Shown piece after piece: positions 2-29,098 of a DNA stretch of 64,000 nt (the stretch's first letter is position 1; each line of letters begins with the position of its first letter). A model generated the notes under the pieces. The model was given only the letters and a program-made list of their open reading frames with translations. It made no database searches and was not told the DNA's origin. This DNA comes from an uncultured Candidatus Saccharibacteria bacterium (GTDB lineage Bacteria; Patescibacteriota; Saccharimonadia; Saccharimonadales; JAGQNJ01). Location of the stretch: the NCBI GenBank assembly GCA_964590205.1, contig CAZPVO010000003.1:682-64681 (forward strand), read 5' to 3'. The translations under genes were made by a program, and so were the position numbers.

Positions 2-811
2 CACAAAACTCACCAGCGCAAACCAATCAAACCGCGCTCAATCGCCGATGTTAAAGAACAGATAGCTTCCAAGGTCGGTACCCGGGGCAAATTATCAAAA
101 AAACATCACCTGCAGTCGATTGTATTTGGCCTGGGTATGGGTGCAGTCGTGTTATTTATTCTGATGTTCAGTTTCTTTAATGATCGAATCATCGCACCAT
201 TTATCAGCCCAAGTCGTGATGTCAGCAACACACCAATAATTGTGGACCAAAATTCCACCGCCGTTAACAATGATCCGAAAGTTATTATTCCAAAAATTAA
301 TGTTGAGATTCCTGTTGTCTATGATGTGCCGTCAATTGATGAGCAATCAGTAGACAACGGCCTAGAGCGCGGCGTAGTGCATTACGCGTCCACACCTAGC
401 CCTGGAGAGCAGGGAAATGTAGTTGTTGTTGGTCACTCCAGCAATAATATTTTCAACAAAGGTAAATATAAGTTTGCATTTGTCTTACTCAAAAAGCTCG
501 AGGTAGGTGACACCTTCATGCTAGACAAAGATGGCAAACAATATGTCTACCGCGTTTACGACAAGAAAATTGTTAAGCCAACCGATGTATCTGTGCTCGG
601 TCCTGCAGACAAACCATCGACCGCAACGTTAATTACTTGTGATCCGCCTGGAACTTCACTGAATCGTTTGGTTGTAACTGGTGAGCAAATCAGCCCAGAC
701 CCAGGCGCCAACGTTACCAGCACAGTAGTTAACAATAATCAAAAGCCAGCTATCGTGCCAGGCAATGCCGAAAGCCTATGGCAACGCTTTAAAAACTGGA
801 TCACTGGTTAG
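2..811 (+). CDS. sortase family transpeptidase (5' end probably outside window)
   Basis: VVVGHSSN His motif, TLITC catalytic Cys motif and downstream NRLVV Arg. The frame is open back to base 2 with no in-frame start before M137, and a TM helix spans residue 137. Confidence 0.8.
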   Translation, partial: HKTHQRKPIKPRSIADVKEQIASKVGTRGKLSKKHHLQSIVFGLGMGAVVLFILMFSFFNDRIIAPFISPSRDVSNTPIIVDQNSTAVNNDPKVIIPKINVEIPVVYDVPSIDEQSVDNGLERGVVHYASTPSPGEQGNVVVVGHSSNNIFNKGKYKFAFVLLKKLEVGDTFMLDKDGKQYVYRVYDKKIVKPTDVSVLGPADKPSTATLITCDPPGTSLNRLVVTGEQISPDPGANVTSTVVNNNQKPAIVPGNAESLWQRFKNWITG

Positions 812-817
812 GCAAAC

Positions 818-2302
818 CTATTGATCTGTTCGTAGGCTTGCTCGGGTAAGTGCAAACTTTGTCTTATCATTTTCTTGGGTGGAAATATTGTAGATAGCCG
901 TAAAATCGCGGTCGAATTGTGGTGTGCTGCCGCTGAGCGCACCATTGAGGGTTTGCAAATTGTTACCATCAAAATCAAACATGATAACTTGATTGTTACT
1001 AATTGCTACCAGACGATCCCCGTCCATCCATGAGGCTGGCTCATTCAGGTCAAATGGCTTATTGATACTGTAGCGATACTGGCGGTCTGTCTGCGCATCA
1101 TAAACAGCAAAAGTTTGGTTTTTACCTTGGGCCGAAATAAATTGAGCATTAGCCGAGAACAAAACCTTTTCAGGTGCGTCGACACGCAACGTTCGTGCAG
1201 GCAAATTTTGTTTTTGTTTTTCGTTTTGCAGAATGGTTATCGGATCTTCATAAATGTAGACCTGATTTTCACTTTGTGCACCAGCCACCACAAACCAATG
1301 ATTGTCGAAGCGTGCCAAGTCTAATAGGTATGGTGTTCCTACGGGTAATTCGCGTAAAACATGGTCGTCATTATTGTTCTTAAGACGAACATCGACCTTA
1401 CCAGGTGTAATTGTTGGATCGTTGGAAATATATTCAATCGTATCAGTGCCATGTGGCTTAAAATTAACGACGTGCGGCAGCAGTGGAGTTATATTTTTGT
1501 CTTTAATAACGCCTTGTTGCAGCAACCCGCCTGTCAGCAAAAAAACCTGGTCAGTCGACTTATTAAATAGGGCAACTTCGTCCGGAGTTTGGCTAAACTG
1601 TTGGTTGATATTCACACTTTCAGTCGGATTTACAAAGTTGAAAATAATAAATTCTTTTTTGCCATCAAAATCATGCTGCAGTAATAAATGGGTATTGTCG
1701 GTTGACCACTCTACAACTTTGAGTTGCTGATTAGCGCCAGGACTCAATACGCTTGCTGGAATAGTTGTAAGCGTGGAAGTTGGTTGCTTTTTACTAGCAT
1801 CAAAAACTTCAAACTGGTTAAAACCACCTGGCTTGAGTACTAGCACCCAATGTCGATCCGGACTGCCTGTAATAATTGCCGGAGCAGAGTTATAAGTCTG
1901 CGTATTCGTCGTTTTCAGTTGGTTCGGAATAAGCAGCGGATAATCCAGACGCACGACACTGCCACCATCGATTTCAAAACTTCGCTGCCAATTACGGTAG
2001 CCGTCTTTGCTGAGTGTTACGCTATATTTTGCCGCCTGCAAGGTTATACGGGCGTTGGTCGATGACTCTGGCAAATGTCCACCGTTTTGATCAGTTAAAT
2101 CAATCTTGGCTCCGCTCGGGCTTGATGCCAAAAATACTAAACCGTTTTGAATAATTTTACCGGTGTGGCGATCGACACCATAACCAAAAGAACTATAAAG
2201 CACAATAATTGTGCACATAGTTATAGCAATGGCCATCAGCGCGTAGCCGATGTATAGGCGAATGGTATGAGCTCGTTTTTTGTGAGGGTCAAGAAAATCC
2301 AT
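818..2302 (-). CDS. membrane-anchored PEGA-domain protein
   Basis: N-terminal TM helix followed by a PEGA-like segment (SSPSGAKIDL...YSVTLSKDGYRNWQRSFEI). The rest is beta-rich and uncharacterised. Confidence 0.45.
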   Translation of the reverse strand: MDFLDPHKKRAHTIRLYIGYALMAIAITMCTIIVLYSSFGYGVDRHTGKIIQNGLVFLASSPSGAKIDLTDQNGGHLPESSTNARITLQAAKYSVTLSKDGYRNWQRSFEIDGGSVVRLDYPLLIPNQLKTTNTQTYNSAPAIITGSPDRHWVLVLKPGGFNQFEVFDASKKQPTSTLTTIPASVLSPGANQQLKVVEWSTDNTHLLLQHDFDGKKEFIIFNFVNPTESVNINQQFSQTPDEVALFNKSTDQVFLLTGGLLQQGVIKDKNITPLLPHVVNFKPHGTDTIEYISNDPTITPGKVDVRLKNNNDDHVLRELPVGTPYLLDLARFDNHWFVVAGAQSENQVYIYEDPITILQNEKQKQNLPARTLRVDAPEKVLFSANAQFISAQGKNQTFAVYDAQTDRQYRYSINKPFDLNEPASWMDGDRLVAISNNQVIMFDFDGNNLQTLNGALSGSTPQFDRDFTAIYNISTQENDKTKFALTRASLRTDQ

Positions 2303-2443
2303 ATTTAGCTTCTCCAGTTTATACTTATCTGTCTCCAGCGTCTATACATCCTGGTGAAAATGCTAATCCTTAATGCTTGCTCTTGAGGCCAATCAGCGGT
2401 AAGATATCAGTGAAATGTAAATCACCGAGGGTACCTTACAAGC

Positions 2444-3547
2444 GTGAGTGATCACAAAAACGTCATTGAACTAAATGGAAAGCTATATGATAGCGTAAGC
2501 GGTCATATGGTGGGCAACAAAGGCAACGCCGGGCCAACGGTAATTAAGCCTGGTACGGCCGTTGATGGATTTGTGAGAAGTGCTCCCGTAAAAGAGCCTA
2601 AGGCCCATCACACACAAACCGCACCAAAACCAATCCACGTGCAAGCTCCAACTCATCACAATAAAGCACATAAAGCAGCCAAGAGCATTGCTGCTCATAC
2701 GCAACATCACTCCAAAACCTTAGTTCGCCGGGGTCTTAAGAAACCGATCGCCGAACGTCCTGAAGAATCTGAAGTTTACACTAAAGGCACACCTCAACCA
2801 GAACGACTGGCTCGGGCCAAATCAACACCACAGAGTCCTCATATATCAAGGTTCGGTCTGCCGAGCGCAGCCACTTTTCAAGTAACCAAAAAAACAACTC
2901 ATATGCCTGTTAAACATTCGCCGAATCAATTAAAAGCCCGCGCCGCGATTCAGCAGGCATCGGTGCCAATTGCCAGCCAAAATCAAATACTAAAAGAGCA
3001 GATGGTTTCCAAAGCACTTAACGATGCGCGTGTTGATGAAGTGCCGCATAAAAAGGCAAAAAAGCACAACACCGCTCGTAGACTTGGTGTTAGTCCAAAA
3101 GTTGTTCATTTTGGCGCTGCAACTCTAGCAGCTGTTTTGCTATTCGGCTTTATTGCATATCAAAATGCACCGAATATTAGCATGAAGATTGCTGCATCTA
3201 AAGCTGGTATTAGCGCCGTTTTGCCATCATACAAACCAGCTGGTTTTGGCTTGAGCGGACCTATTGAATACGGCCCAGGTCAGATAACATTGAATTTCAA
3301 GTCTCACACCGACAATCGTAATTTCCATATTACTCAACGCGCTTCTGATTGGAATAGCGAAGCATTGCTCAGTAATTTTGTCTCAACTAACAGCAAATCT
3401 TACCAAACAGTACAGGACAAAGGCCGTACTATTTATATTTACGATGGCACGAATGCAACCTGGGTGAGCGGTGGCGTGTGGTATCAAATTGAAGGTAATT
3501 CTTCCTTAAGCTCTGAACAATTAGTCAAGCTCGCTGGCAGTATCTGA
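2444..3547 (+). CDS. membrane-anchored protein with DUF4367-like C-terminal domain
   Basis: GTG start. His/Lys/Pro-rich N-terminus, one TM helix, and a C-terminus (GRTIYIYDGTNATWVSGGVWYQIEGNSSLSSEQLVKLAGSI) that resembles the DUF4367 pattern. Confidence 0.4.
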   Translation: MSDHKNVIELNGKLYDSVSGHMVGNKGNAGPTVIKPGTAVDGFVRSAPVKEPKAHHTQTAPKPIHVQAPTHHNKAHKAAKSIAAHTQHHSKTLVRRGLKKPIAERPEESEVYTKGTPQPERLARAKSTPQSPHISRFGLPSAATFQVTKKTTHMPVKHSPNQLKARAAIQQASVPIASQNQILKEQMVSKALNDARVDEVPHKKAKKHNTARRLGVSPKVVHFGAATLAAVLLFGFIAYQNAPNISMKIAASKAGISAVLPSYKPAGFGLSGPIEYGPGQITLNFKSHTDNRNFHITQRASDWNSEALLSNFVSTNSKSYQTVQDKGRTIYIYDGTNATWVSGGVWYQIEGNSSLSSEQLVKLAGSI

Positions 3548-3566
3548 TGAGGCGGCTTCGCCTTTT

Positions 3567-3620
3567 GAGAGGGGATATCCCCTCTCAACGCGCAGAGCAA
3601 AAAGTGTGATTTTTGCTCTG
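3567..3620 (+). terminator. two tandem hairpins downstream of CDS 2444..3547
   Basis: GAGAGGGGATATCCCCTCTC palindrome at 3567-3586. An 11-bp stem CAGAGCAAAAA/TTTTTGCTCTG lies at 3593-3620. Confidence 0.5.
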
Positions 3621-3630
3621 GCTCTCTCCC

Positions 3631-3658
3631 CTGAAATTCTTCAATCATCTGGTACAAT
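3631..3658 (+). promoter_or_regulatory. extended -10 promoter of gltX (leaderless geometry)
   Basis: TGgTACAAT at 3650-3658, 6 nt before the ATG at 3665, with a weak -35 CTGAAA. Confidence 0.4.
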
Positions 3659-3664
3659 ACAGAG

Positions 3665-5095
3665 ATGAAAGTAAGAACTAGGTTTGCTGTTAGTCCAACT
3701 GGTTATATGCACGTTGGCGGTGTGCGTAATGCACTATTTGATTGGCTCGTTGCCAAACAGACTGACGGGCAGTTTATATTGCGCATCGAGGATACTGATC
3801 AAGCCAGGGAAGTAAAAGGTGCTCTCGAGCATATCATTGAAACACTACATATTCTTGGTATTACATGGGACGAAGGTCCGGATGTTGGCGGGCCAGCTAA
3901 AACTTACGTGCAAAGCCAGCGACTAGATATTTATAAAGAATGGGCTCAGAAGCTCGTTGATGCCGGCAAGGCTTACGCTGATCCATACACGTCCGAGCAA
4001 GTACAACAATTCCGAGAACAAGCTCAAAAAGATAAAAAGCCCTTTTTGTATCGCGATCATCGGCCAGAGAACCCTCCCAAATGGGACGGTACGCAACCAT
4101 TACGCCTCAAGTCAGAACCCAAAGCTCATAAATGGCACGACGAAGTTATGGGTGATTTGTCTGCTGGCGAGGAAGCTGTTGACGATTTTGTGCTCATAAA
4201 ATCTGATGGTTATCCAACGTATAATTTTTGCCACATTATTGATGATCATCTCATGGATGTAACTCATGTGATTCGATCACAAGAATTTTTGGCCAGTATG
4301 CCAAAGTATCTTAATCTTTATGAGTCACTCGATATTTCTAAACCAAAATTTGCCACTCTACCGTGGATTATGGCTGAAGGGGGCAAAAAGAAACTCAGTA
4401 AACGTGACGGCGCTAAAGATGTTTTAGACTACATCCGTGAAGGTTATTTGCCCGAAGCATTGGTTAGTTTTATCGCCACACTCGGCTGGAATGATGGTAC
4501 AGAACAAGAAGTTTTTACTGTTGATGAGCTCATTAAAAAATTCAGTTTGGAACGAGTGGGCAAAAGCGGCGCGCACTTTGACGAGCAACGCTTAACATGG
4601 GTCAACGGTCACTTTATTCGACAACTCAAACTCGATGAACTCTATACAAAAGTAAAAGACTTTTGGCCAGCAGAAGCCGAGGGTTCAGACGAAGATTATA
4701 AAAAACAGGTTTTGGCACTTGTACAAGAACGGCTCAAATATTTTACTGAGCTGCCCGAGCTCACCAAATTTTTCTTTGAAGAGCCCAGCCCTGACATAGA
4801 GCTAATTGACAATAGCAAGCAACTCAAAAAATTCTCGCATGATGAGTTGGCAAAACTGTTGCGCACAGCAATTGATAGTTTAGAAACCAGTAATTTTAGC
4901 ACCGAAGACCTTACCAAAAAGCTCAATGATTTATTAGAAACCACCGAGCAAAAGCCTGGCGTGCTGTTTAGCTTAATCCGCGTGGCAACAACATGGTCAC
5001 CAGCATCGCCAGCTCTTGCAGAAAGCCTACATGTACTCGGCAAAGACAAATCGCTGAACAGGCTCAAAGCCTCTCAACAATACATTGGTAAATAA
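3665..5095 (+). CDS. gltX: glutamyl-tRNA synthetase
   Basis: Class I motifs PTGYMHVGGVRNALF (HIGH-type) and KLSKRDG (KMSKS-type). Similar to GluRS over the full length. Confidence 0.93.
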   Translation: MKVRTRFAVSPTGYMHVGGVRNALFDWLVAKQTDGQFILRIEDTDQAREVKGALEHIIETLHILGITWDEGPDVGGPAKTYVQSQRLDIYKEWAQKLVDAGKAYADPYTSEQVQQFREQAQKDKKPFLYRDHRPENPPKWDGTQPLRLKSEPKAHKWHDEVMGDLSAGEEAVDDFVLIKSDGYPTYNFCHIIDDHLMDVTHVIRSQEFLASMPKYLNLYESLDISKPKFATLPWIMAEGGKKKLSKRDGAKDVLDYIREGYLPEALVSFIATLGWNDGTEQEVFTVDELIKKFSLERVGKSGAHFDEQRLTWVNGHFIRQLKLDELYTKVKDFWPAEAEGSDEDYKKQVLALVQERLKYFTELPELTKFFFEEPSPDIELIDNSKQLKKFSHDELAKLLRTAIDSLETSNFSTEDLTKKLNDLLETTEQKPGVLFSLIRVATTWSPASPALAESLHVLGKDKSLNRLKASQQYIGK

Positions 5096-5121
5096 GCATA
5101 AGCGCTTGTATAATGTAGCCC

Positions 5122-6423
5122 ATGGACGATACAGATAAGTCATCTGGCACTGACCCGATGGCTAAACATCATCATGTTGATACCAGTAAAACTCTAGAGC
5201 AACTCGAAAAAGATCACGGCACCCAAAAGTCACCCCAAAAGTTAGCCGCTGACGCTTTCAAAGACGATGACGAAGGTTTTAAAACCCCCGAAGAAGTTGC
5301 CCAGGCTGAAGACAAAGTAGAAGGAGACGACCCACAAGTGAAGAGCAAAAAACAGGGATTTTGGTCAAAATTCAGCCATAAAAACCTGACTAAAAAGCAG
5401 AAAATAATTTTGATCATTGTATTGATAGTCGCTCTGTTTGGTTTGTTGGTTGGTGCATGGATGTGGAAAAACAAGAAAATGCCGATATCCATGAACAAGC
5501 CAGCTCAAAAGAAAGAAGCAGCAAAGCCAACTACCGTTCCATCAACATTGACTGGTCGGCCAGTTTCACCTGATGTTAACGAACGGCAAGTTACTGCTGT
5601 TATGATCGAAAACAGTCCCGACGCTCGACCGCAGTCAGGACTTATCGACGCCGGTGTTGTGTTCGAAGCCGTCGCCGAAGGTGGCGTGACACGTTTTGTG
5701 GCATTGTTTCAGGACACCGCACCCGATTATGTTGGTCCGATCCGCAGCGCACGCTCTTATTACATTGACTGGATGCGTGGTTTTGACGCCGCGTACGCTC
5801 ATGTTGGCGGTAGCCCAGAAGCATTAGCTATCATCAAAGGTGACAGCAGTATAAAAGACCTCGATCAATTTTCTAACTCTGGCAGTTATGACCGCGTAAC
5901 GAGTCGTTATGCACCACACAATGTCTACACCAGCATTGGCAGATTAAACGGACTGGAAGCTTCTAAAGGCTACACTAAAAGCACCTTTACAGGCTTCGTG
6001 CGTAAGAAAGATGCGCCGTCGCCAGCACCAAACCAAAATAAAATTGATATCAATATGTCTGGATTTTTGTACAACCCGCATTGGGATTACGATAAAACGA
6101 CAAATACATACATACGAAGTGAAGGTGGTAAGCCACACACCGATGAAAAAACAGGGCAGCCAATTCGCGCCAACGTGATTGTTGCACTCGAAACTCAAAA
6201 GGGCATTATGGCCGACGGCTACCACTCAACCTACACGACTATTGGGAGTGGAAAAGTAATGGTCTTCCAGGACGGCGCCATGGTTGGCGGTACTTGGAGC
6301 AAAAAAGATGCCAAAAGTCAGATTGTATTTACTGGTGATGACGGCAAGCCACTAGCGCTTAATACAGGCATCACATGGATAACAGCAGTGGGCGGAGCTC
6401 AAGACGTTACTGCCGGGCCATAA
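5122..6423 (+). CDS. DUF3048 domain-containing membrane-anchored protein
   Basis: An acidic N-terminus and one TM helix are followed by VTAVMIENSPDARPQSGLIDAGVVFEAVAEGGVTRFVALF...GPIRSARSYYIDW, which is typical of DUF3048 (YerB-like). Confidence 0.75.
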   Translation: MDDTDKSSGTDPMAKHHHVDTSKTLEQLEKDHGTQKSPQKLAADAFKDDDEGFKTPEEVAQAEDKVEGDDPQVKSKKQGFWSKFSHKNLTKKQKIILIIVLIVALFGLLVGAWMWKNKKMPISMNKPAQKKEAAKPTTVPSTLTGRPVSPDVNERQVTAVMIENSPDARPQSGLIDAGVVFEAVAEGGVTRFVALFQDTAPDYVGPIRSARSYYIDWMRGFDAAYAHVGGSPEALAIIKGDSSIKDLDQFSNSGSYDRVTSRYAPHNVYTSIGRLNGLEASKGYTKSTFTGFVRKKDAPSPAPNQNKIDINMSGFLYNPHWDYDKTTNTYIRSEGGKPHTDEKTGQPIRANVIVALETQKGIMADGYHSTYTTIGSGKVMVFQDGAMVGGTWSKKDAKSQIVFTGDDGKPLALNTGITWITAVGGAQDVTAGP

Positions 6424-8533: not shown

Positions 8534-8884
8534 ATGGACTCAAATCTTATAGATGGAACGCTGGAAGAAGGTGTTGTGACTGAGCATCGCGGGTTTCCGA
8601 ATCCTGCGACCGACACCAATATTGTTCCACTTGATCTCACCAAGCTACTTGTTAAACACCCGCTCGCCACATTTTTTATGCGCATTGATAGCAATGAGTG
8701 GGAGCGATTTGGCATTTTCAAAGAAGACCTAGCGATTATTGATCGTTCGCTCAAACCAACACAGATTGATCTAGTCATTTGGTGGGACGAAACTACCTTT
8801 GTGCTCGCCAAATTTCATAAATTGCCCCTTGATACAACCATTTGGGGCGTCGTTACTAATATTATTCATCGATACAGGAGTTAG
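8534..8884 (+). CDS. umuD: short UmuD/LexA-like S24 peptidase-fold protein
   Basis: GFPNPATD...LDLTKLLVKHPLATFFMRIDSNEW...DLAIIDRS aligns by eye to the UmuD core. GGAG lies 8 nt upstream of the ATG, and the gene sits immediately upstream of umuC. Confidence 0.65.
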   Translation: MDSNLIDGTLEEGVVTEHRGFPNPATDTNIVPLDLTKLLVKHPLATFFMRIDSNEWERFGIFKEDLAIIDRSLKPTQIDLVIWWDETTFVLAKFHKLPLDTTIWGVVTNIIHRYRS

Positions 8885-8887
8885 AAA

Positions 8888-10174
8888 ATGAAACAACCAA
8901 TCTTCGCGTTAATAGACTGTAATAATTTTTTCGTCAGCTGCGTCCGCGCGTTCAGGCCTGATCTGGAAGGCAAGCCAGTCGTGGCATTATCGAGCAACGA
9001 CGGCTGTGTAGTCGCGCGCAGCAACGAGGCCAAAGCGCTCGGCATTCCAATGGGAGCACCAGTGTTCAAATGGAAAGAAATTTTCAAGCGACACAACGTT
9101 ATCCAATTTTCCGGCAATTTTGAACTGTACGCCGACATGTCCCGCCGCGTTACCGCCATGCTCAAATCAATCACGCCGCATATCGAGATTTACTCAGTCG
9201 ACGAATCGTTCTTAGATTTGTCAGAACTTGAAATTGAGGATTACACCGCTTGGGCCAAGCAGGTGAGAGCGATGGTTTTACAGTGGACAGGTTTGCCGGT
9301 TGCCATCGGTATTGCTGGCAGTAAAACACTGGCCAAATTAGCCACTGATCGGGCTAAAAAAGAATTCGAACTTGGTGGTGTGCTGGATTTATATTCACCA
9401 CACCCAGAAGACCGTGCACCGTACATGGAACGCACGCGACTAAAAGATATTTGGGGAGTTGGCTGGCGACTGGCGCCTAGACTCAAAGCCGAAGGTATTC
9501 ACAGTGCTATGGATATTGCCAACATGCGACCGCAGTTCGCCCAAAGTCTGATGGGCATTCACGGTCGGCAATTAGTTGCGGAGCTTAATGGTGAATGTTG
9601 TTTACCGCTCACCAAAGTTGGCAAGCCAGCACAGAGTATTGCTAACACCCGAACATTTGGCGAAGACACCAATCAATTTCATGTGCTCGAAGCTGCTATT
9701 GCATCGTTTGCATCTAAAACTACTCAGAAGTTGCGGGCTGGCCACCAGCTCACTACCAAGGCTGGCATTTTTATTGCCACCAACAAGCATAAACCGGGTT
9801 ACCGTATGCAAACTGAGACAGTTGATTTTTTGGCACCAACAGCCGACACCGGGAAGATCACCCAAGTTTTAACCGAGAAATTGCGTGATATGTTTAACTC
9901 CCATAGTTCCTACCACCGCGCTGGCGTGTGGCTCTACGATTTTATTCCCGAGCGGGCTTTTCAGATTGATCTGCTCGGCAATGCGCGGCCGGATATACAC
10001 GAGCAATCAACAGACCGAATGAGCGCCGTTGATAATCTCAACGAGCGCTATGGCAAGCACACAATATATTACGCAGCCGAGGATCTAGGCAATTCCTGGC
10101 AGCCACAGCGCAAACAGCAAATGCCACGCTTCACGACCCGTTGGGATGAACTCGCCCCCGTTACAATCAAGTGA
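8888..10174 (+). CDS. umuC: Y-family translesion DNA polymerase (UmuC-like)
   Basis: The N-terminus FALIDCNNFFVSCVRAFRPDLEGKPVVALSSNDGCVVARSNEAKALGI closely parallels UmuC. Confidence 0.88.
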   Translation: MKQPIFALIDCNNFFVSCVRAFRPDLEGKPVVALSSNDGCVVARSNEAKALGIPMGAPVFKWKEIFKRHNVIQFSGNFELYADMSRRVTAMLKSITPHIEIYSVDESFLDLSELEIEDYTAWAKQVRAMVLQWTGLPVAIGIAGSKTLAKLATDRAKKEFELGGVLDLYSPHPEDRAPYMERTRLKDIWGVGWRLAPRLKAEGIHSAMDIANMRPQFAQSLMGIHGRQLVAELNGECCLPLTKVGKPAQSIANTRTFGEDTNQFHVLEAAIASFASKTTQKLRAGHQLTTKAGIFIATNKHKPGYRMQTETVDFLAPTADTGKITQVLTEKLRDMFNSHSSYHRAGVWLYDFIPERAFQIDLLGNARPDIHEQSTDRMSAVDNLNERYGKHTIYYAAEDLGNSWQPQRKQQMPRFTTRWDELAPVTIK

Positions 10175-11040
10175 AAAAGTGTTCACTGCAACTGACGCCC
10201 ATTGCGCCCACAATGGGGCACATGAGATTTGATATAGCAGAAAAAGCACCATATAGAAACTTTGACTTGCCAGTTGTACACTTACCAGAATTTGTCGAAG
10301 GGCATTATGCTCCCGACAAGCCATTCATGTCTGGTGATGAGGCGCGTGCTGAAGGTGACGAGTTCGTAACCTGGAAACCACAAGTCGCTATTGAGCAATT
10401 AATCGGCACACGAGTTGCTACCAGCAATATTCGCCTCGTTGAAAGTCCTGAAGCGCTCAAATTTAGCAGCCGCTTTATTGCAGCCAGTGGCTTGAATGCC
10501 GCCTGGTATAGTTTTGCCAGGTACCAAGAAGATGTTCAAAGGCGCGTTTTAAAGCTACCTGTTCTTGATAGTGACAATGTAGATTGGCGACCAACAAGCG
10601 CGGAGCTACACCAAACGGCTCTTGATAAGTTTGAGTATGCACAGTGGGAAGCGTTCAAAATTGCTAAAGCCTATGAAAAAGGCAAGGCAAATCTTATTGA
10701 TTTCAACCCAGCCTACGGCAGGACAATCGGCAACATTGCCCTTACACTAAGCGCTATCGATCTTGGTGATAAAGTACGCGGCAATCGCTTAGTCAGTAAC
10801 TTCTTTGCTTCGCATCTTGCACGCGAGCGGGCTAAAGATACTCTTCGTGACTCAGGCATGCTCATTAAAGAGATTAAGAGTTTTCCATCGATTGCGCAGC
10901 TCGGTAATCCAAACAGCGATCTTTCAACTTATCTGCGCCACAACGGTCCGCAAGAAAGTCGAGCAGCATTTAATGTAAGTCTGGAGGAGGCACTGGCATA
11001 TGGAACAGAAATACCAGAATTCATGGCAGCAGTCCGATAA
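10171..11040 (+). CDS. hypothetical protein, possibly third gene of the umuDC unit
   Basis: The GTG start overlaps the umuC stop (GTGA); alternative ATG starts lie at 10213 and 10222. No recognisable motif. Confidence 0.4.
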   Translation: MKKCSLQLTPIAPTMGHMRFDIAEKAPYRNFDLPVVHLPEFVEGHYAPDKPFMSGDEARAEGDEFVTWKPQVAIEQLIGTRVATSNIRLVESPEALKFSSRFIAASGLNAAWYSFARYQEDVQRRVLKLPVLDSDNVDWRPTSAELHQTALDKFEYAQWEAFKIAKAYEKGKANLIDFNPAYGRTIGNIALTLSAIDLGDKVRGNRLVSNFFASHLARERAKDTLRDSGMLIKEIKSFPSIAQLGNPNSDLSTYLRHNGPQESRAAFNVSLEEALAYGTEIPEFMAAVR

Positions 11041-21396: not shown

Positions 21397-22251
21397 ATGA
21401 CAAAAAAGCATAAGCTAAAAGGGCTCGAAATCCCTGATTGTCTCCAAACAATTCCTTCGCCACCGAAGGAGTTGTTTATTTATGGAGAGTTGGCACCTCT
21501 GTTAGAAAAACCTCGTTTGGCAGTGGTTGGCAGTCGTAAAGTAACACCTTACGGTAAAGCAGTAACAGGGCAACTCACCAGGGAAGCAGCCGAAGCCGGA
21601 ATTGTCATTATAAGTGGGCTAGCCCTTGGTGTGGACAGTATTGCACATCAAGCCACATTATCTGCCAGTGGGCTCACCGTAGCCGTGCTGCCTTCGTCAA
21701 TTGAAAACATAGCGCCTAGAGCCCATATACCGCTTGCTCAGCGGATTTTAGAGCAAAATGGCGCTCTCGTAAGTGAATACCCTCAGGGCAGCGAGCCGAA
21801 CCGTGGAAACTTTATTAATCGTAATCGTATCGTGGCAGGCTTGAGCGATGCGGTACTCATCACCGAAGCCGCCGCCAACAGTGGCACCATGCACACCGCA
21901 AACTTTGCGCTTGAGCAAGGCAAACCAGTTCTTGTTGTACCAGGTAACATAACCAGCCCACAGAGCGCTGGCACCAATAATCTGCTTAAATCTGGCGCAA
22001 TACCAGTTACTGACGTCGAAGATATCTTTAGTGTGCTGGGCATTAATAAGAATAAAACAAGCCTCGTCATTAACGCTGCCAACGAGCAGGAATTTATTAT
22101 TCTTAGTCTGATTCAAGAGGGAACGAGCGATGGCCACGAGCTGCTGGCCAAGAGTGAACTCGACGCCGCCGTGTTTAATCAGACGCTCACCATGCTTGAA
22201 ATAACAGGGAAGATCAAAGCCCTCGGCAGCAACCACTGGGCAAAATTGTGA
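21397..22251 (+). CDS. dprA: DNA processing protein DprA (Smf)
   Basis: VVGSRKVTPYGKAVTGQLTREAAEAGIVIISGLALGVDSIAHQATL Rossmann-like DprA core. The dprA-topA adjacency is classic. Confidence 0.9.
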   Translation: MTKKHKLKGLEIPDCLQTIPSPPKELFIYGELAPLLEKPRLAVVGSRKVTPYGKAVTGQLTREAAEAGIVIISGLALGVDSIAHQATLSASGLTVAVLPSSIENIAPRAHIPLAQRILEQNGALVSEYPQGSEPNRGNFINRNRIVAGLSDAVLITEAAANSGTMHTANFALEQGKPVLVVPGNITSPQSAGTNNLLKSGAIPVTDVEDIFSVLGINKNKTSLVINAANEQEFIILSLIQEGTSDGHELLAKSELDAAVFNQTLTMLEITGKIKALGSNHWAKL

Positions 22252-22320: not shown

Positions 22321-24606
22321 ATGTCCAAAAACCTAGTTATCGTTGAGAGTCCAGCTAAAGCCAAAACCATCGAGAAATACTTAGGCAGCGATTTCACTGT
22401 TAAAAGTAGTTTTGGCCATGTTCGTGATTTGCCAAAAAAAGGTTTGAACATTGACATCGAGCACAATTTTAAGCCGACATATGAGATCAGCCCAGATAAA
22501 ACAAAGGTGATCGCTGATCTCAAAAAAGCCGCAAAAGGGAAGGAAGTTTGGCTGGCAAGCGATGAAGACCGTGAAGGTGAGGCGATTGCGTGGCACCTCT
22601 GTTCAGCACTCGGTTTGGACCCTAAAACAACCAAACGAATTGTTTTTCATGAAATTACAAAACCGGCGATTGAAGAGGCAGTAAAAAACCCTCGAACTGT
22701 CGATGAAAAGCTTGTTGATGCTCAGCAAGCTCGCCGTGTTTTGGATCGTTTAGTAGGTTATGAATTGTCGCCAATTCTCTGGAAAAAAGTTACCGCTGGC
22801 TTAAGCGCTGGTCGTGTGCAATCTGTTGCCGTACGACTTATTCAGGAGCGAGAACGCGAAATAACAGATCACGTCGCTGCGAGCGACTTTAAGGTAACAG
22901 CCGAATTTAAAGCCAGCAAAGACACCGTTCCAGCCGAGCTTACAGTGCGGCTTAAAGACAAAGCAACTTCCAAAAAATTCCTCCAAGACTGCGTCAAAGC
23001 TAACTTTACCATCAGTTCAATTGATAAAAAACCGGGCTCACGTAATCCGAGTGCACCGTTTACGACCAGCACATTGCAACAAGAAGCCTCTCGTAAAATC
23101 GGGAATTCGGTTCGCCAAACTATGCGACTCGCACAAGGCCTGTACGAGAACGGGCACATCACTTATATGCGTACCGACAGCACCAACTTATCTGGTCTAG
23201 CTATTAAATCCTTTGGAGATTACATCGAAAAGCAGTATGGCACTAAGTATCACCAAGTTCGTCAGTACAAAACCAAATCTGCTGGCGCGCAGGAAGCTCA
23301 CGAAGCTATTCGTCCAACCGACATTACCAAAACTTCAGCTGGCAGTTCGCCTCAAGAACAACGTCTGTATAAACTAATCTGGCAACGAGCGCTGGCTAGT
23401 CAAATGGCAGCCGCAAGTGTTGAGAGAACCGAAGCGTTGATTGACATTAGTACTCGCAAGGAACAATTCCTAGCTAAGGGTGAGATTCTGACGTTTGATG
23501 GCTTTTTAAAAGTGTACGATAACACCCAAAAAGATGTGATTTTACCAGAGCTCAAGCAAGGTGAAAGCTTGAAAGCCGAGCAAATTGTTGCCACTGAAAC
23601 ATTTAGTAAACCAAAAGGCCGCTACTCTGAAGCCTCACTCGTTAAAAAACTCGAGGAACTCGGTATTGGTCGCCCAAGCACCTATGCACCAACTATTAGT
23701 ACTATTCAAGATCGTGGTTACGTTGAAAAAGGCGATGTGGAAGGCGAAGAGCGCGATATCAGCGTGGTTACGCTCAAAAGTGGGAAAGTGAGTGAAGAAG
23801 TTGAGAAACAGCGCTACGGCGCCGATCAGAACAAACTAATCCCAACACACTTAGCTGAAATGACCACAGATTTTTTGGTTAAATATTTTACTGAGATTTT
23901 AGATTATGACTTTACAGCTAAGGCTGAAGAGGAATTCGACGATATCGCCGATGGTAAACACAAGTGGCAAGACAGCATTGAGCGTTTTTATAAGCTATTT
24001 CATCCGTTAATCGGTAAGGCCGAGAAAGTTTCCCGTGAGGAAACCTCTAAAGCCCGTGAGATTGGAAAAGACCCAAAGTCTGGCAAGCCAGTGATTGCTC
24101 GTTATGGCCGATTCGGTCCAATGTTACAGATAGGTGAGGCCGAGGACGAAGAGAAGCCAAAGTTCGCACCACTGCCTGAAGGCGCCAAGATCGAAACTGT
24201 TACCCTCAAAGAAGCCATGGAAATGTTCAAGTTGCCGCGAGTCGTCGGTAAAACCGAAGATGGTCAGGAAATCACCGCCAACATCGGTAGATTTGGCCCG
24301 TATATTCAGGTAGATAAGATTTTTGTATCGCTGAAAGAGGCTGATCCGTTCACTATTAAGGAACCCGAAGCCCGTAAACTATACAAAGAAAAGCTCGACA
24401 AAGAAGCCGCCAAGAATATTGCCGATTTTGGCACAATTAAGGTGCTAAACGGCATGTACGGCCCGTACGTAACAGATGGCAAAAAGAATGCCAAGATTCC
24501 AAAAGAACAAGATCCGAAGAAGTTAACAGAAATCGAAGCTCAGAAACTCTTGGATGAAGCACCCGCAAAAGGCAAAGGCCGCCGCTTCCCCCGCAAAAAA
24601 GCATAA
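22321..24606 (+). CDS. topA: DNA topoisomerase I
   Basis: Toprim N-terminus LVIVESPAKAKTIEKYLG and active-site region GHITYMRTDS. The C-terminal repeats (GRFGPMLQ, GRFGPYIQ, YGPYVTDG) lack Cys, and the tail KGKGRRFPRKKA is basic. Confidence 0.95.
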   Translation: MSKNLVIVESPAKAKTIEKYLGSDFTVKSSFGHVRDLPKKGLNIDIEHNFKPTYEISPDKTKVIADLKKAAKGKEVWLASDEDREGEAIAWHLCSALGLDPKTTKRIVFHEITKPAIEEAVKNPRTVDEKLVDAQQARRVLDRLVGYELSPILWKKVTAGLSAGRVQSVAVRLIQEREREITDHVAASDFKVTAEFKASKDTVPAELTVRLKDKATSKKFLQDCVKANFTISSIDKKPGSRNPSAPFTTSTLQQEASRKIGNSVRQTMRLAQGLYENGHITYMRTDSTNLSGLAIKSFGDYIEKQYGTKYHQVRQYKTKSAGAQEAHEAIRPTDITKTSAGSSPQEQRLYKLIWQRALASQMAAASVERTEALIDISTRKEQFLAKGEILTFDGFLKVYDNTQKDVILPELKQGESLKAEQIVATETFSKPKGRYSEASLVKKLEELGIGRPSTYAPTISTIQDRGYVEKGDVEGEERDISVVTLKSGKVSEEVEKQRYGADQNKLIPTHLAEMTTDFLVKYFTEILDYDFTAKAEEEFDDIADGKHKWQDSIERFYKLFHPLIGKAEKVSREETSKAREIGKDPKSGKPVIARYGRFGPMLQIGEAEDEEKPKFAPLPEGAKIETVTLKEAMEMFKLPRVVGKTEDGQEITANIGRFGPYIQVDKIFVSLKEADPFTIKEPEARKLYKEKLDKEAAKNIADFGTIKVLNGMYGPYVTDGKKNAKIPKEQDPKKLTEIEAQKLLDEAPAKGKGRRFPRKKA

Positions 24607-25246: not shown

Positions 25247-26290
25247 ATGGCTAACGAGCAGAAAACAGCGCAAACTTCGGTGGAGAAGTACGTTAATGAC
25301 ATTCTTGAAACCATCGACAAAGAACGTGAGCGCGAAATTGTATCTCGACGTTTTGGCTTGTTTGACCGTAAAGAGACTCTCGAGCAAATAGGGGAGTTGT
25401 TAGGTATTACTCGTGAACGTGTTCGTCAGCTGGAAAAAGCTGTTGTTTCTCGCTTAAAAGCACAGGCAGCTGAGGGCAAAGTTCCACATATCGCAGAAAT
25501 CGAAAAAGAATTTGTTGAGCGAGTAAGTACAATGGGGAAGTCAGGCCGTGTGAGCGACCTCTCGGCTAAGCTAACAAAAGACAATTCTCGTCTTGATCAA
25601 GCTCGTGTATCGTTCCTCGCACAACTATGCCCAAAGCTGGTTGTTGTTGATGAAAACGACTTTTATTACCTAAGCGTAGCGCTATCTGACAGTTTTAATG
25701 AAAAATCGCTCAAAGATGCTGTCGCTAAAATTATTGAAGCTATCAAGAAAATTGGTGAGCCAACAACTATTGATAAAGTTGCCGAAGCTATCAAGCATCC
25801 AAACGCTAAAGAAGTTGCAGCGCTTGCCAGCACTAGCAAGCAACTCGCAAATCTGAACAACCGCTGGGGACTTATTAAGTGGCCGATGGTCAATCCTAAG
25901 AACATTCGCGACAAAATCTATGTTATTTTGTTTGAGAACGGCAAACATATGCACTTCGGTGAAATCGCTGATGCAATCAAGAAATCAGAGTTCAAGCGCA
26001 AAGACGTAACAACTCAGGCTATCCATAACGAACTTATTAAAGATTCACGCTTCGTGCTGGTAGGGCGGGGAATTTACGCGCTCAAAGAATGGGGTTATAA
26101 GAAGGGAACTGTCGCTGATGTGATCAGCGATGTGCTTCGAAAAGCCGGTGAACCATTACACCGCGACGAAATCGTCAAGCGTGTATTAAAAGATCGCTAC
26201 GTCAAGGAAACGACAATTCTTCTCAACTTACAGGGCAAGAAGCAATTCAAACGTGTTGCTAAAGCAACCTACACACTAGCAGAAAGCTAA
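25247..26290 (+). CDS. sigma-70 region 4-like HTH protein with HARE-HTH-like repeats
   Basis: REIVSRRFGLFDRKETLEQIGELLGITRERVRQLEKAVVSRLK is a region-4 type HTH, and no region 2 is seen. C-terminal repeats resemble HARE-HTH (MHFGEIADAIKK...FVLVGRGIYALKEWGY; GTVADVISDVLRKAGEPLHRDEIVKRVL...FKRVAKATYTL). Confidence 0.6.
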   Translation: MANEQKTAQTSVEKYVNDILETIDKEREREIVSRRFGLFDRKETLEQIGELLGITRERVRQLEKAVVSRLKAQAAEGKVPHIAEIEKEFVERVSTMGKSGRVSDLSAKLTKDNSRLDQARVSFLAQLCPKLVVVDENDFYYLSVALSDSFNEKSLKDAVAKIIEAIKKIGEPTTIDKVAEAIKHPNAKEVAALASTSKQLANLNNRWGLIKWPMVNPKNIRDKIYVILFENGKHMHFGEIADAIKKSEFKRKDVTTQAIHNELIKDSRFVLVGRGIYALKEWGYKKGTVADVISDVLRKAGEPLHRDEIVKRVLKDRYVKETTILLNLQGKKQFKRVAKATYTLAES

Positions 26291-26892: not shown

Positions 26893-27564
26893 ATGGCACA
26901 TTCATCTCGAAGCCGCAGGGAAGTCGACAGACAAGAGAAACACCCTGAGGTTCTTGTCGCCAGAGGCGATTTAAGTCCGGATGACAAACGCTTTATTACA
27001 GAATTTTTGAAACGGGTAGCAGGGTTTTCTGCAATTCAATATACACCAGCCGATGAATATGATGCCAGACCACAGCAGCCTGTTCATATAAGTTTGCTCA
27101 AGCCAGGTGTAACCGAAGGATTATTTCGGTTTGACGAAATTGTAAATCCTGATGATTTCGTTGTTCGCGAACATGTCGAAGACTTTAAGCGAAGATACGT
27201 TTACCCCAACGAGCTTTGTAATACGTTTGTGGGCCGAACCTTTAATTATATTGTCGATGGCCGTGGAAGCCGATTCGTTTCTAGTTGGAGCACAAATCCT
27301 GAACAGCCCGGCCGCTTTTTTAGGGATCCAGCACCAATTGCTAAGGCAGATGTTCGTTTGCGCGATGAGATTGATCTTCCGCCATATCCAAATACAATCG
27401 ACGGCACCAGTAAGAGTGCGTACTGCGCCCGCTTCGCAATCAGGGCAGGGAGCATTATAGAAGCCACTGACGCCCTCTGGGAACATGTGGACATAGATAA
27501 CCTAAAAGTAGCAGAATATGGCTTACACCTTGTTGCTACGCAACTGCAAGCTCAGCTCACTTAA
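26893..27564 (+). CDS. hypothetical protein
   Basis: 223-aa ORF starting 2 nt after the preceding stop. No motif recognised. Confidence 0.45.
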   Translation: MAHSSRSRREVDRQEKHPEVLVARGDLSPDDKRFITEFLKRVAGFSAIQYTPADEYDARPQQPVHISLLKPGVTEGLFRFDEIVNPDDFVVREHVEDFKRRYVYPNELCNTFVGRTFNYIVDGRGSRFVSSWSTNPEQPGRFFRDPAPIAKADVRLRDEIDLPPYPNTIDGTSKSAYCARFAIRAGSIIEATDALWEHVDIDNLKVAEYGLHLVATQLQAQLT

Positions 27565-27762
27565 TGATTTTCAAAATATAGAACATTTTGCGAACATGAT
27601 TATAGTCATGGGTAGTAAAGAAATAGTAGGAATAAAATGCTGGGTATAACTACGGGCAGTGCAGTCAGGTAAATAAAATTCAAAAACAAAATTTTGAAAG
27701 CGAAGATTTAAAAACGTCTGCACAGACGCAAATATACAGCAGCGCAAAAGGCCATAGATCTC

Positions 27763-27790
27763 GTGTCGCACAATGTATATTTTGCGACTC
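27763..27790. other. dif-like Xer recombination site candidate
   Basis: GTGTCGCACAA-TGTATA-TTTTGCGACTC has an 11-6-11 layout with near-palindromic arms (GTCGCAcAA / TTtTGCGAC). The central hexamer is identical to E. coli dif TGTATA as I recall it. It lies in the convergence gap. Confidence 0.45.
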
Positions 27791-28192
27791 ATATATAGTC
27801 TCTCAAAGATGATTAACTCATACCTGCCTAACAGGGGAGTTTTAACGTAAAAACGTGTTTGGACGTGTTTTTGTGATGTCACTGCACTACACGCATACTT
27901 GCATTTCAATAAGCACCTAGACACTCAAATATCCTTCTAGTGTCTCGTTACATTTTTAACCACAATTTGACTTTTCCACAGTGCGGTGTTGCTATATTTG
28001 CTTTTTCGTGTGATTTATGTCGCTTTTTATTTATCCCCTGTCCTGCTATATTTCACGGAAAATTTGACTTTTCACGATTTCGATATGTTCGTATAGTTTT
28101 TTTAGAATAGCAGGTGTCACTCACTAATGAACAAAATCCGAACATTGAGGGGAGAGTGGCAGAAGGCCTATCGGGTTCAGCTCAGAGGCCTA

Positions 28193-29098
28193 CTACTTGT
28201 AAAATGCGTGTCCTTCAACTCGAACGTCCACATATTCAGCCGGCGTAACCTTATCAGCCTCTAGTTTCCCCTTCACCGCCAGATACGTACCTGACTGCAA
28301 GCGAGGATCACTGGCAAAGGTCATTTTGATGTAATACGGCTTATCGGCAAGTTTTACATACACCTCGTTCGCTAACGGGGGTAGGATGAATGAAATATTT
28401 TTGACTCCTTTATCCGCTAATTGTGCCTGAACGTTTTGTAAAAACTGAATCTGTGAGGAAGGCAAATATTGTTTGCCAACAGTGGTGTCTTGATTAGTCT
28501 GGTCTTCAATATGAACGAGGTTACTTTGCGGCAATGTTTGATCGCCTTTCATGATGATTCGCCCTTGTTCATCGAGAGCGTAAATATCATTGCTGCCTTT
28601 TTGCAGTAAAAAGGTCGGTTGGGTAATTTGCAAATAGTACACGGGTCGCCGATTTATCAGAGGTAAACTGACGTTAGCACCGGCAATTTCCGGGAATAGT
28701 TTTTGAATATTACGAGCTAATCCTGTCGTGTTAATCGTGATCTTGGTTTTACTTAAGGGTGAGCTTTTTAAATCCTTTTCGGCAGCCTGTTTATAAGCGC
28801 CCGAACTCCGTAGTAGCGATGGTGTTGCTTGATCATGCTCGTTAACAATAACAATCTTCGGATTTGGATCAATCGTCAAAATATACAAAAAACATCCCGC
28901 AATGACTATCAGCGTTAGTATGGTAGTAATATGCAGTCGGCGTAGGCCAGATTTTGTTTTCTTAGTACGCTGTTGAACCGCATCTACGCTGTCGTTTTTA
29001 GGGATCACACGGTTCTGGTAAAAGGAAAATACCGCTCGATCACTTTGAGTGTTTGTTATCCGGCCTGGTTTATTTTGTTTTTTTCTCAATATGCTCAC
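28193..29098 (-). CDS. ftsQ: cell division protein FtsQ/DivIB-like
   Basis: Cytoplasmic N-terminus, one TM helix, and a POTRA-like plus beta domain. It occupies the last position of the dcw cluster, after murG. Confidence 0.6.
   Translation of the reverse strand: MSILRKKQNKPGRITNTQSDRAVFSFYQNRVIPKNDSVDAVQQRTKKTKSGLRRLHITTILTLIVIAGCFLYILTIDPNPKIVIVNEHDQATPSLLRSSGAYKQAAEKDLKSSPLSKTKITINTTGLARNIQKLFPEIAGANVSLPLINRRPVYYLQITQPTFLLQKGSNDIYALDEQGRIIMKGDQTLPQSNLVHIEDQTNQDTTVGKQYLPSSQIQFLQNVQAQLADKGVKNISFILPPLANEVYVKLADKPYYIKMTFASDPRLQSGTYLAVKGKLEADKVTPAEYVDVRVEGHAFYK

Follow-up and report, generated by a model that had tools for sequence, protein, structure and literature searches.

A candidate dif site between converging gene blocks of a Saccharibacteria chromosome

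The 64-kb stretch of DNA analyzed here (the window), which is assigned to a genome of the Saccharibacteria (Patescibacteria, or candidate phyla radiation, CPR), contains an intergenic gap of 628 bp (27565..28192, unstranded) at which gene orientation switches, so that the 3' ends of two converging gene blocks face each other across it. What does such a gap mark, and is the short palindrome within it a dif site, at which an Xer recombinase would resolve chromosome dimers? A first-pass annotation of the same DNA had proposed both a candidate replication terminus and a dif-like site. Our analysis leads us to conclude, with a probability of roughly 80%, that the window belongs to a Saccharibacteria chromosome, that positions 27763-27790 are its dif site, and that the gap is the meeting point of two orientation domains (replichores). 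In our own gene set, 23 of the 29 features left of the gap lie on the plus strand and 39 of the 43 features on its right lie on the minus strand, in agreement with the converging transcription reported earlier, and this convergence spans at least 27 kb on one side of the site and 36 kb on the other within the window. The gap is indeed the longest intergenic stretch of the window, the runner-up having a length of 378 bp. Its AT-richness is also real (GC content of 37.6% compared to 44.4% for the whole window), although other intergenic gaps have GC contents of 31-37% and the gap is not special in this respect. The only open reading frame (ORF) of at least 60 residues in the gap (27571-27924, minus strand, 117 residues) had been judged implausible; it has no match in a Pfam search, and no gene is called there in four related loci (L003, L007, L009, and L011).

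The dif-like site and its conservation

The 28-mer on which the dif proposal was based is present exactly at 27763..27790 (unstranded) and reads GTGTCGCACAATGTATATTTTGCGACTC. It divides into an 11-bp left arm, a 6-bp center identical to the central hexamer of E. coli dif, and an 11-bp right arm (GTGTCGCACAA TGTATA TTTTGCGACTC), and its invariant 24-bp core, GTCGCACAATGTATATTTTGCGAC, occupies positions 27765-27788. Comparison with the E. coli reference, which we confirmed in NC_000913.3 between yneL and hipA, shows that 18 of the 28 positions are identical, as are 16 of the 18 positions in the inner part, CGCAcAATGTATATTtTG. The earlier estimate of 6-7 matches out of 11 in each arm holds for the left arm, which agrees with the XerC arm at 7 of 11 positions, and fails for the right one. 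That arm mirrors the left arm, unlike a XerD-type arm: GTCGCAcAAT and ATTtTGCGAC are complementary at 9 of 10 positions, as the proposed near-perfect inversion would have it. As read from its arms, the site is not a canonical XerC/XerD dif. Five of the six inner palindromic pairs are formed, which places the site within the dif definition of Kono et al. 2011 (PMC3025954). Taken alone, however, the palindrome is no argument for a site, because 24-mers with at least 10 of 12 palindromic pairs occur three times in the window and 2.95 times in shuffled sequences, which is chance level.

Conservation carries the argument further. Scanning the degenerate pattern TCGYAAAATAYACATTGTRCGA over 185,579 species-representative genomes returned at least 119 stretches, each with one match and each from a different assembly, where about 0.5 chance matches are estimated. 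Labels among these listed matches are nearly all Candidatus Saccharibacteria, Saccharimonadia, or Saccharimonadales, and the assemblies include four chromosome-level records. The core is also unique in the window even when up to three mismatches are permitted, and we found no second copy in any 8-kb locus except at the prophage junction described below. Moreover, the G and the C that flank the searched pattern, and that were left unconstrained, are invariant (123 of 123), and conservation collapses just beyond them, leaving a sharp-edged core of 24-28 bp that reads A-Y-GTCGYACAATGTATATTTTRCGAC.

The surroundings of the site are also retained. Contigs of four relatives with homologues of the 301-residue protein encoded at the right edge of the gap (69%, 58%, 41%, and 36% identity) have the same synteny, which comprises the division and cell wall (dcw) cluster, a gap of 580-740 bp, a gene for a protein with sigma-70 region 4 and HARE-HTH domains (sigma4-HARE), topA, and dprA. 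A gap of this length with the same flanks is kept in relatives down to flank-protein identities of 25-35%. The motif is likewise conserved in an alignment of five such gaps, which is 61% identical overall and contains the near-invariant GAGTCGCAAAATATACATTGTGCGAC, its reverse complement. Searches by tblastn with the window proteins reveal a near-constant order in a single orientation (topA, sigma4-HARE, site, and, facing these, the gene in FtsQ-like position, murG, ftsW, and mraY), and in nearly all Saccharibacteria some 400-560 nt separate the stop codon of the FtsQ-like gene from the core. Where its neighbors differ, the site is usually flanked by converging genes all the same, as in locus L101, where it follows atpD-atpC. 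L101 (GC content of 37%) and L015 are both labelled 'uncultured Bdellovibrionales' (GC contents of 35-37%) and share the dif-like core; either the two contigs were binned wrongly and belong to Patescibacteria, or this type of site extends beyond Saccharibacteria.

The way in which the arms vary is informative in a different respect. The mirrored variable positions, Y on the left and R on the right, are found as C-G in 76 cases, C-A in 27, T-G in 19, and T-A in one. Such independent variation fits two equivalent half-sites for a protein and speaks against a hairpin under selection.

Recombination at the core, phage-borne copies, and the recombinase

Does recombination take place at the core? 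The pattern TCGYAAAATAYACATTGTRCGA matched four contigs in IMG/VR, and one of these, L132 (IMGVR_UViG_3300025919_000034), is host DNA that carries the FtsQ-like gene and the usual conserved blocks to the right of the core. The core in L132 is preceded by a 5.5-kb element (reverse-complement coordinates 561-6098) encoding a replication initiator (Rep) of the rolling-circle type (PF23343, 44.5 bits; phrog_3419) and an ATPase resembling Zot (PF05707, 25.9 bits), both hallmarks of filamentous phages. A tyrosine recombinase gene is absent from this element, which can be viewed whole between both of its junctions. A partial copy of the site, ATGTCGCACAATGTATATT joined to GCGATAT, forms the far end (attL), and the intact site forms attR. 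Given that the conserved gap segments termed blocks A and D below are separated from attL (on its left) and attR (on its right) by 188 and 200 nt, compared to 185 and 199 nt for their counterparts in the window, the prophage is inserted precisely at the core. A 19-nt duplication consisting of the left arm and the center marks its borders, with one intact site regenerated, and the same junction structure is left at dif by CTXphi, VGJphi, and other integrative mobile elements exploiting Xer (IMEX; reviewed in PMC5357621). As judged indirectly from this junction, site-specific recombination has occurred at the core in nature, and the L132 element is apparently an IMEX whose host is a CPR bacterium. 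Efforts to locate a free attP form of this phage in IMG/VR, an unoccupied site in a close relative of L132 among the fetched loci, or further IMEX among the at least 119 genome loci were unsuccessful.

A relaxed form of the pattern identified 26 viral contigs (L133-L157 range, GC contents of 28-51%) carrying GTCGYACAATGTRTATTNNNCGA. Many of these sites are perfectly palindromic, ACGTCGCACAATGTATATTGTGCGACGT being an example, and the ORFs of the contigs include terminases, portals, and capsid proteins, many of the contigs being those of tailed phages. In the approximately 230 kb of viral loci that could be read, which represent parts of the contigs, tblastn detects no XerD-like ORF, and Phage_integrase is absent from the families matched by at least two of 91 ORFs. 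These data suggest that use of the host Xer site, either for integration or for resolving multimers, is common among CPR phages. The same contigs, together with the prophage at the site, might instead be taken to mean that the site is mainly an attB targeted by phage integrases and that it has no role in dimer resolution, especially as an integrase could be encoded elsewhere on contigs of which most are readable in part. A mere attB, however, provides no reason for an invariant single copy in at least 119 prophage-free genomes, for the identity with canonical dif at 16 of 18 inner positions, or for the location of the site at a switch in gene orientation. In addition, the L132 element is complete between its junctions and has no recombinase, and the XerD search of the viral loci was negative. 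We consider it improbable that phage attachment is the main function of this sequence.

As to the enzyme, the earlier statement that no xer gene lies in the window is borne out by tblastn with E. coli XerD and by a Pfam analysis of 40 ORFs of the window, among them every one of 250 residues or more, neither of which revealed a tyrosine recombinase. The genome of a cultured relative, Southlakia epibionticum ML1, has a length of 864 kb with dnaA at position 1 (Wang et al. 2023, PMC10633639). Its sole PF00589 protein is SEML1_0117 (307 residues), which has an N-terminal SAM-like domain and XerC proteins as best structural matches, and which is non-essential, although its disruption gives a growth defect; the FtsK protein of this organism, SEML1_0096, carries a gamma domain (PMC10633639 supplement). 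The independent transitions in the half-sites, the palindromic phage variants, and the presence of one PF00589 protein in this relative all support the single-recombinase system that had been suggested for the site. We infer that one Xer-family tyrosine recombinase, encoded elsewhere in the source genome, would bind the half-sites GTCGYACAA and TTNTRCGAC, bring the two dif copies of a chromosome dimer into synapsis at the closing septum, and exchange strands across the central TGTATA. FtsK, guided from both sides by polar words of the GGGNAGGG type, probably unites the two copies and activates the reaction. The combined evidence suggests a Xer system that has kept the canonical dif core while employing one recombinase on symmetric arms.

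Position in the chromosome, the rest of the gap, and the weight of the evidence

That the dif site lies at the junction of two orientation domains is well supported. Convergence of transcription recurs at the homologous locus of S. epibionticum, in which the dcw cluster occupies the plus strand up to 263.6 kb; beyond a 19-kb stretch of accessory genes, the minus strand carries the sigma4-HARE homologue as well as topA and dprA, followed on this strand by dnaB, dnaX, rplJL, rplK, nusG, and secE at 350-420 kb (PMC10633639 supplement). This locus was placed by its genes alone, the site sequence there being unconfirmed. In three chromosome-level records with unconfirmed start points, the distance from the start of the record to the site amounts to 48.7%, 47.6%, and 46.6% of the length, and, for two of these, the originating study ran circular metagenome-assembled genomes (MAGs) through dnaapler, which reorients them to dnaA (PMC12313526). 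It is probable that replication forks terminate at the site, opposite oriC. The word GGGNAGGG is the E. coli consensus of the FtsK orienting polar sequences (KOPS). All five of its occurrences in the window are directed toward the site (5:0), and the ratio of words pointing toward and away from it is 172:10 over 954 kb in 123 related loci, compared to polarities of only 75-84% for ordinary purine-rich words. One of these five words, the KOPS-type octamer GGGCAGGG, is located 315 nt left of the core (27443..27450, plus strand), aims at the core, and ranks 10th of 6455 octamers by polarity, most of the top words sharing a purine-rich AGGG-type core. Octamer counts in the window alone are too few for this purpose and are confounded with the coding strand, but GCAGGG or AGGGCA copies located inside anti-oriented genes still point toward the site in four of four cases. 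AGGG-type words are candidate FtsK-orienting (KOPS-like) words. Separately, GCAGGG shows a 22:0 bias toward the site in the window, which includes copies inside genes on the opposite strand.

The core is not the only conserved part of the gap, as is evident when block conservation is computed over 106 genomes. Blocks A (GAACATTTTGCGAACAT, 27581..27597, plus strand, 185 nt left of the core) and I (ATGAACAAAATCCGAACAT, 28127..28145, plus strand, 363 nt right of the core) are the left and right copies of a direct repeat, GAACA-N5-CGAACAT, that has only these two perfect copies in the window. Many genomes retain block A at a distance of about -175 to -390, and both copies of the repeat persist in divergent lineages. 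Block C (AGATGATTAACTCATACCT...TAACAGGGGAGTTTT, also written AGATGATTRACT...TAACAGGGGAGTTTT; 27807..27843, plus strand), which extends from about +41 to +77 relative to the core, exhibits column conservation of 70-90%. The TAACAGGGG element of this block is also seen, as TAACAGGGG/CCCCTGTTA, beside the core on four phage contigs (L133, L135, L140, and L147), and the presence of TAACAGGGG or its complement next to phage cores hints at a functional link with the core. Block D (ATTTGACTTTTCCACAG, 27965..27981, plus strand), which is more than 90% conserved, is composed of a TTGAC box and the DnaA-box-like word TTTTCCACA, and a DnaA-box-like word is found at +175 to +275 in approximately 100 loci. 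Blocks G and H (28062..28103, plus strand) were also identified by conservation and consist of a second ATTTGACTTTTC box with TATAGTTTTTTT 22 nt further on. The two perfect copies of ATTTGACTTTTC in the window are both in the gap, in blocks D and G (boxes ATTTGACWTTTC), and GGGGAGAG is likewise conserved there. We also note that the GAACA copies are in an 11-bp register, resembling the sites of response regulators.

Several interpretations of individual blocks were considered and rejected. The TTGAC...TATAGT blocks do not make a sigma-70 promoter, since the spacers are 20-22 nt in length, and other promoter candidates are weaker. A LexA/SOS box reading of GAAC-N7-GAAC was discarded given that both perfect copies are in the gap and none is upstream of the Y-family polymerase gene of the window, as was a replication fork trap (Ter) reading of blocks A and I, which are direct rather than inverted repeats. 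It is conceivable that the dif core is the center of a recombination-control module of about 570 bp that is conserved as a unit in Saccharibacteria, a reading that we advance only tentatively and regard as doubtful. In such a module, the GAACA-N5-CGAACAT repeats at -185 and +363, the two TTGAC boxes, and the TAACAGGGG elements would bind accessory proteins, which might speculatively be the essential sigma-region-4/HARE-HTH neighbor or a response regulator, and these proteins would give direction to, or set the timing of, an Xer reaction in which one recombinase acts on a symmetric site.

Alternatively, the palindrome might be the operator of a dimeric regulator, or a site for a nucleoid or terminus protein, with the surrounding blocks controlling an unannotated transcript. 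The duplicated elements (GAACA-N5-CGAACAT and ATTTGACTTTTC, two copies each), the occurrence of nine promoter-like hexamers in the region when 3.7 are expected, and the conserved sigma-region-4/HARE-HTH protein encoded next door are consistent with this idea. The gap, however, is situated between two 3' ends and contains no conserved ORF. Rfam searches of the window at gathering thresholds yield only a tRNA-Glu located elsewhere, a permissive search gives a chance-level snoRNA match, and z-scores of -0.40 and +0.26 for the gap reveal no fold signal, so that a noncoding RNA in the gap was rejected on both Rfam modes and single-sequence folds. Moreover, operators are rarely invariant across a class and are not common to unrelated phages, and an operator leaves the L132 junction, where strand exchange took place inside the core, without explanation. 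This regulatory interpretation is, in our view, quite unlikely.

There is little to recommend the idea of a replication origin, or of some other element under DnaA control, in place of a terminus. The conserved DnaA-box-like TTTTCCACA about 200 nt right of the core, which is a perfect TGTGGATAA in L011 and L009, and the AT-rich, repeat-rich character of the region might be cited in its favor. Only one box is conserved, however, and an origin at this position would place about 85-90% of the window genes head-on to replication because the flanking genes converge; in addition, the skew changes from positive to negative, which is the direction of a terminus. We rejected the oriC reading because of this gene orientation and because dnaA, dnaN, and rnpA-yidC of S. 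epibionticum are at position 1 of the 864-kb genome and distant from the homologous locus (PMC10633639). It is just as hard to credit that the palindrome is a hairpin acting as a bidirectional terminator or structured RNA, as its place between converging operons and its 10 of 12 positions able to pair might suggest, given that paired arm positions vary without compensation, no T-tract follows the palindrome, a terminator scan gave only an unrelated hairpin at 27714-27729, the stop codons on the two sides are 200 and 400 nt away, and the sequence itself is kept beyond what pairing would demand. That other hairpin (GCGTCTGTGCAGACGT plus a T-run, minus strand), which is terminator-like and lies left of the dif core, is common only to the closest relative, L011, and would end minus-strand transcripts only once these had passed the core.

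A number of observations weigh against our assignment of a dif site at the meeting point of two replichores. The outer right arm, TTTTGCGACTC, agrees with the XerD arm (TTATGTTAAAT-like, with a conserved A25) at only 5 of 11 positions, and the approximately 570 bp of other conserved blocks go beyond what a plain dif site would entail. The single-copy count is based on the at least 119 listed matches, so that a second copy is possible in some genome, and a single integration junction, that of L132, was found. Searches by tblastn of 130 site loci detect no recombinase gene within about 4-10 kb of the site, and the 8-20-kb loci around 123 sites contain no XerD-like ORF; this result, together with that for the window, means that the site is not part of a linked module of the XerS/XerH type. 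The expected turn in GC skew is seen in the window, with values shifting from about zero or positive to about -0.1 at 28-30 kb, but the skew follows gene strand, with local flips at 14-16 kb and 57-59 kb; because it flips wherever genes change strand, it adds little to what gene orientation already indicates. Similarly, the polarity of G-rich words is confounded with the coding strand and with the repeated counting of homologous genes. Finally, the S. epibionticum locus is separated from dnaA by 30.5% of the chromosome, so that the two replichores would be very unequal, and the site in CP023991.1 is at 75.8% of a record with an unconfirmed start point. The candidate terminus of the first-pass annotation stands as a junction of orientation domains and lies near the middle of three records (46.6-48.7%), and the homologous locus of S. 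epibionticum is away from such a position. Nevertheless, conservation, the presence of one copy per genome in the at least 119 listed assemblies, the inner-core identity with dif, and the L132 junction argue for a dif-like Xer site.

If this assignment is correct, the site gives the radiation a terminus landmark that could be used in checking MAG assemblies, orienting replichores, and estimating growth rates from coverage. The use of a canonical core by one recombinase also bears on the evolution of one- and two-recombinase systems, and phages that infect these ultrasmall bacteria, a filamentous prophage among them, exploit the site. Both S. epibionticum and N. lyticus are naturally transformable (PMC10633639), which makes this reading directly testable, and the site could double as a safe integration locus for genetic tools.

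The genes on either side of the gap deserve brief description. The left block, on the plus strand, ends with dprA (21397-22251), the topoisomerase I gene topA (22321-24606), a 130-residue ORF, the sigma4-HARE gene (25247-26290, 347 residues, identified with Pfam), and two hypothetical proteins, the last of which has 223 residues (26893..27564) and belongs to a variable segment that separates the conserved sigma4-HARE gene from the site by 0.2-5 kb across relatives. At 263.6-282 kb, S. epibionticum has small ORFs, a type II CRISPR-Cas9 system, and a DNA-binding protein of a type IV secretion system (PMC10633639 supplement), which suggests a hotspot for insertions on the variable side of this locus. 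In the 347-residue protein, sigma-70 region 4 comprises residues 4-77 and is nearest to region 4 of SigA/RpoD, and the C-terminal HARE-HTH domain resembles the delta subunit of RNA polymerase. This protein is better conserved than its neighbors (60-89% identity where the FtsQ-like protein has about 30%), its gene is nearly always beside the dif gap and adjoins the conserved TTGAC boxes, which have no -10 element at a suitable distance, and the homologue SEML1_0294, annotated as RpoS, is essential in S. epibionticum. The right block, on the minus strand, contains the dcw genes rsmH, ftsL, ftsI, mraY, ftsW, and murG, followed by the 301-residue protein in the position of FtsQ/DivIB (28193..29098, minus strand). 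This last dcw protein has no match in Pfam, in NCBIfam, or among PDB sequences; it is conserved across Saccharibacteria, with relatives found only in uncultured assemblies, and its homologue SEML1_0275 is essential in S. epibionticum. We rejected the idea that the right half of the window derives from a phage or mobile element, as its genes are those of the dcw cluster and housekeeping functions and megablast against phage records gave no match. Further to the left, at 8534-11040 (plus strand), a 116-residue ORF, a Y-family DNA polymerase (IMS, IMS_C, DUF4113), and a 289-residue ORF form a possible damage-inducible mutagenesis cassette that has no GAAC-N7-GAAC box upstream. Lastly, the Logan unitigs representing the two window flanks (L001 and L002) break and overlap at the core (27767-27793), and a second species in the same run (SRR9179560, L010) has an identical core; the break is explained by a k-mer common to the two species of this sample.

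Comparison with known Xer systems

Our searches of PMC and bioRxiv found no paper linking Saccharibacteria or Patescibacteria with dif or Xer, and TM7 is mentioned nowhere in the text of the dif survey of 16 phyla (PMC3025954). The closest comparison is with the XerC/XerD-dif system of E. coli, with which the site shares the 11-6-11 layout, the central hexamer TGTATA, and 16 of 18 inner positions. Words of the GGGNAGGG type are biased toward the site, subject to the confounding noted above, the cultured relative has an FtsK with a gamma domain, and an integrase-less filamentous phage makes use of the site, as IMEX of the CTXphi type do. The differences are that the right arm mirrors the XerC-like left arm, that the cultured relative has one tyrosine recombinase, and that the Saccharibacteria site is embedded in a conserved module of about 570 bp with class-wide synteny, whereas the flanks of proteobacterial dif sites are variable (Carnoy and Roten 2009, PMC2731167). 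Like the known IMEX (CTXphi, VGJphi, TLCphi, and the gonococcal genetic island, GGI), the inovirus-type element in L132 is integrase-less and is bounded by one intact and one hybrid site, but its host is a Patescibacterium with apparently one Xer protein, and it is a single example.

Systems with one recombinase provide a second set of parallels. The XerS/difSL system of streptococci and lactococci and the XerH/difH system of Helicobacter and Campylobacter combine one recombinase with a site at the terminus, as is proposed here, both depend on FtsK, and the arms of difH are near-palindromic, as they are in Saccharibacteria. The difSL and difH sites are, however, at least 31 bp in length with an unrelated consensus (TGAAAAC...TTTTCA, for example). 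In addition, the XerS and XerH genes adjoin their sites, whereas no recombinase gene lies within 4-10 kb of the site in the 130 loci, and the enzyme of the cultured relative, with its 307 residues, is of XerC/XerD size rather than the approximately 355 residues of XerS/XerH. Archaeal XerA/dif likewise has a single recombinase and a 28-bp, fairly symmetric site near the terminus, and, as here, the recombinase gene is not necessarily adjacent to dif. XerA nevertheless works without FtsK, unlike the system proposed here, for which FtsK-gamma and KOPS-like polarity are seen and for which the site sequence is nearer to bacterial dif.

The plasmid sites cer and psi, in which about 180 bp of accessory sequence is bound by PepA together with ArgR or ArcA, offer a third comparison. 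The blocks at the Saccharibacteria locus flank a chromosomal site on both sides, unlike those of cer and psi, and the likeness is known from sequence alone. Even so, in both cases a Xer core is accompanied by conserved flanking elements, here about 60-390 bp away, and core copies are also present on extrachromosomal replicons, which in Saccharibacteria are those of phages. The flanks moreover include a direct repeat in 11-bp register of the kind bound by response regulators. Were the tentative module reading to prove true, the gap would represent a chromosomal counterpart of the accessory-sequence mechanism of cer and psi.

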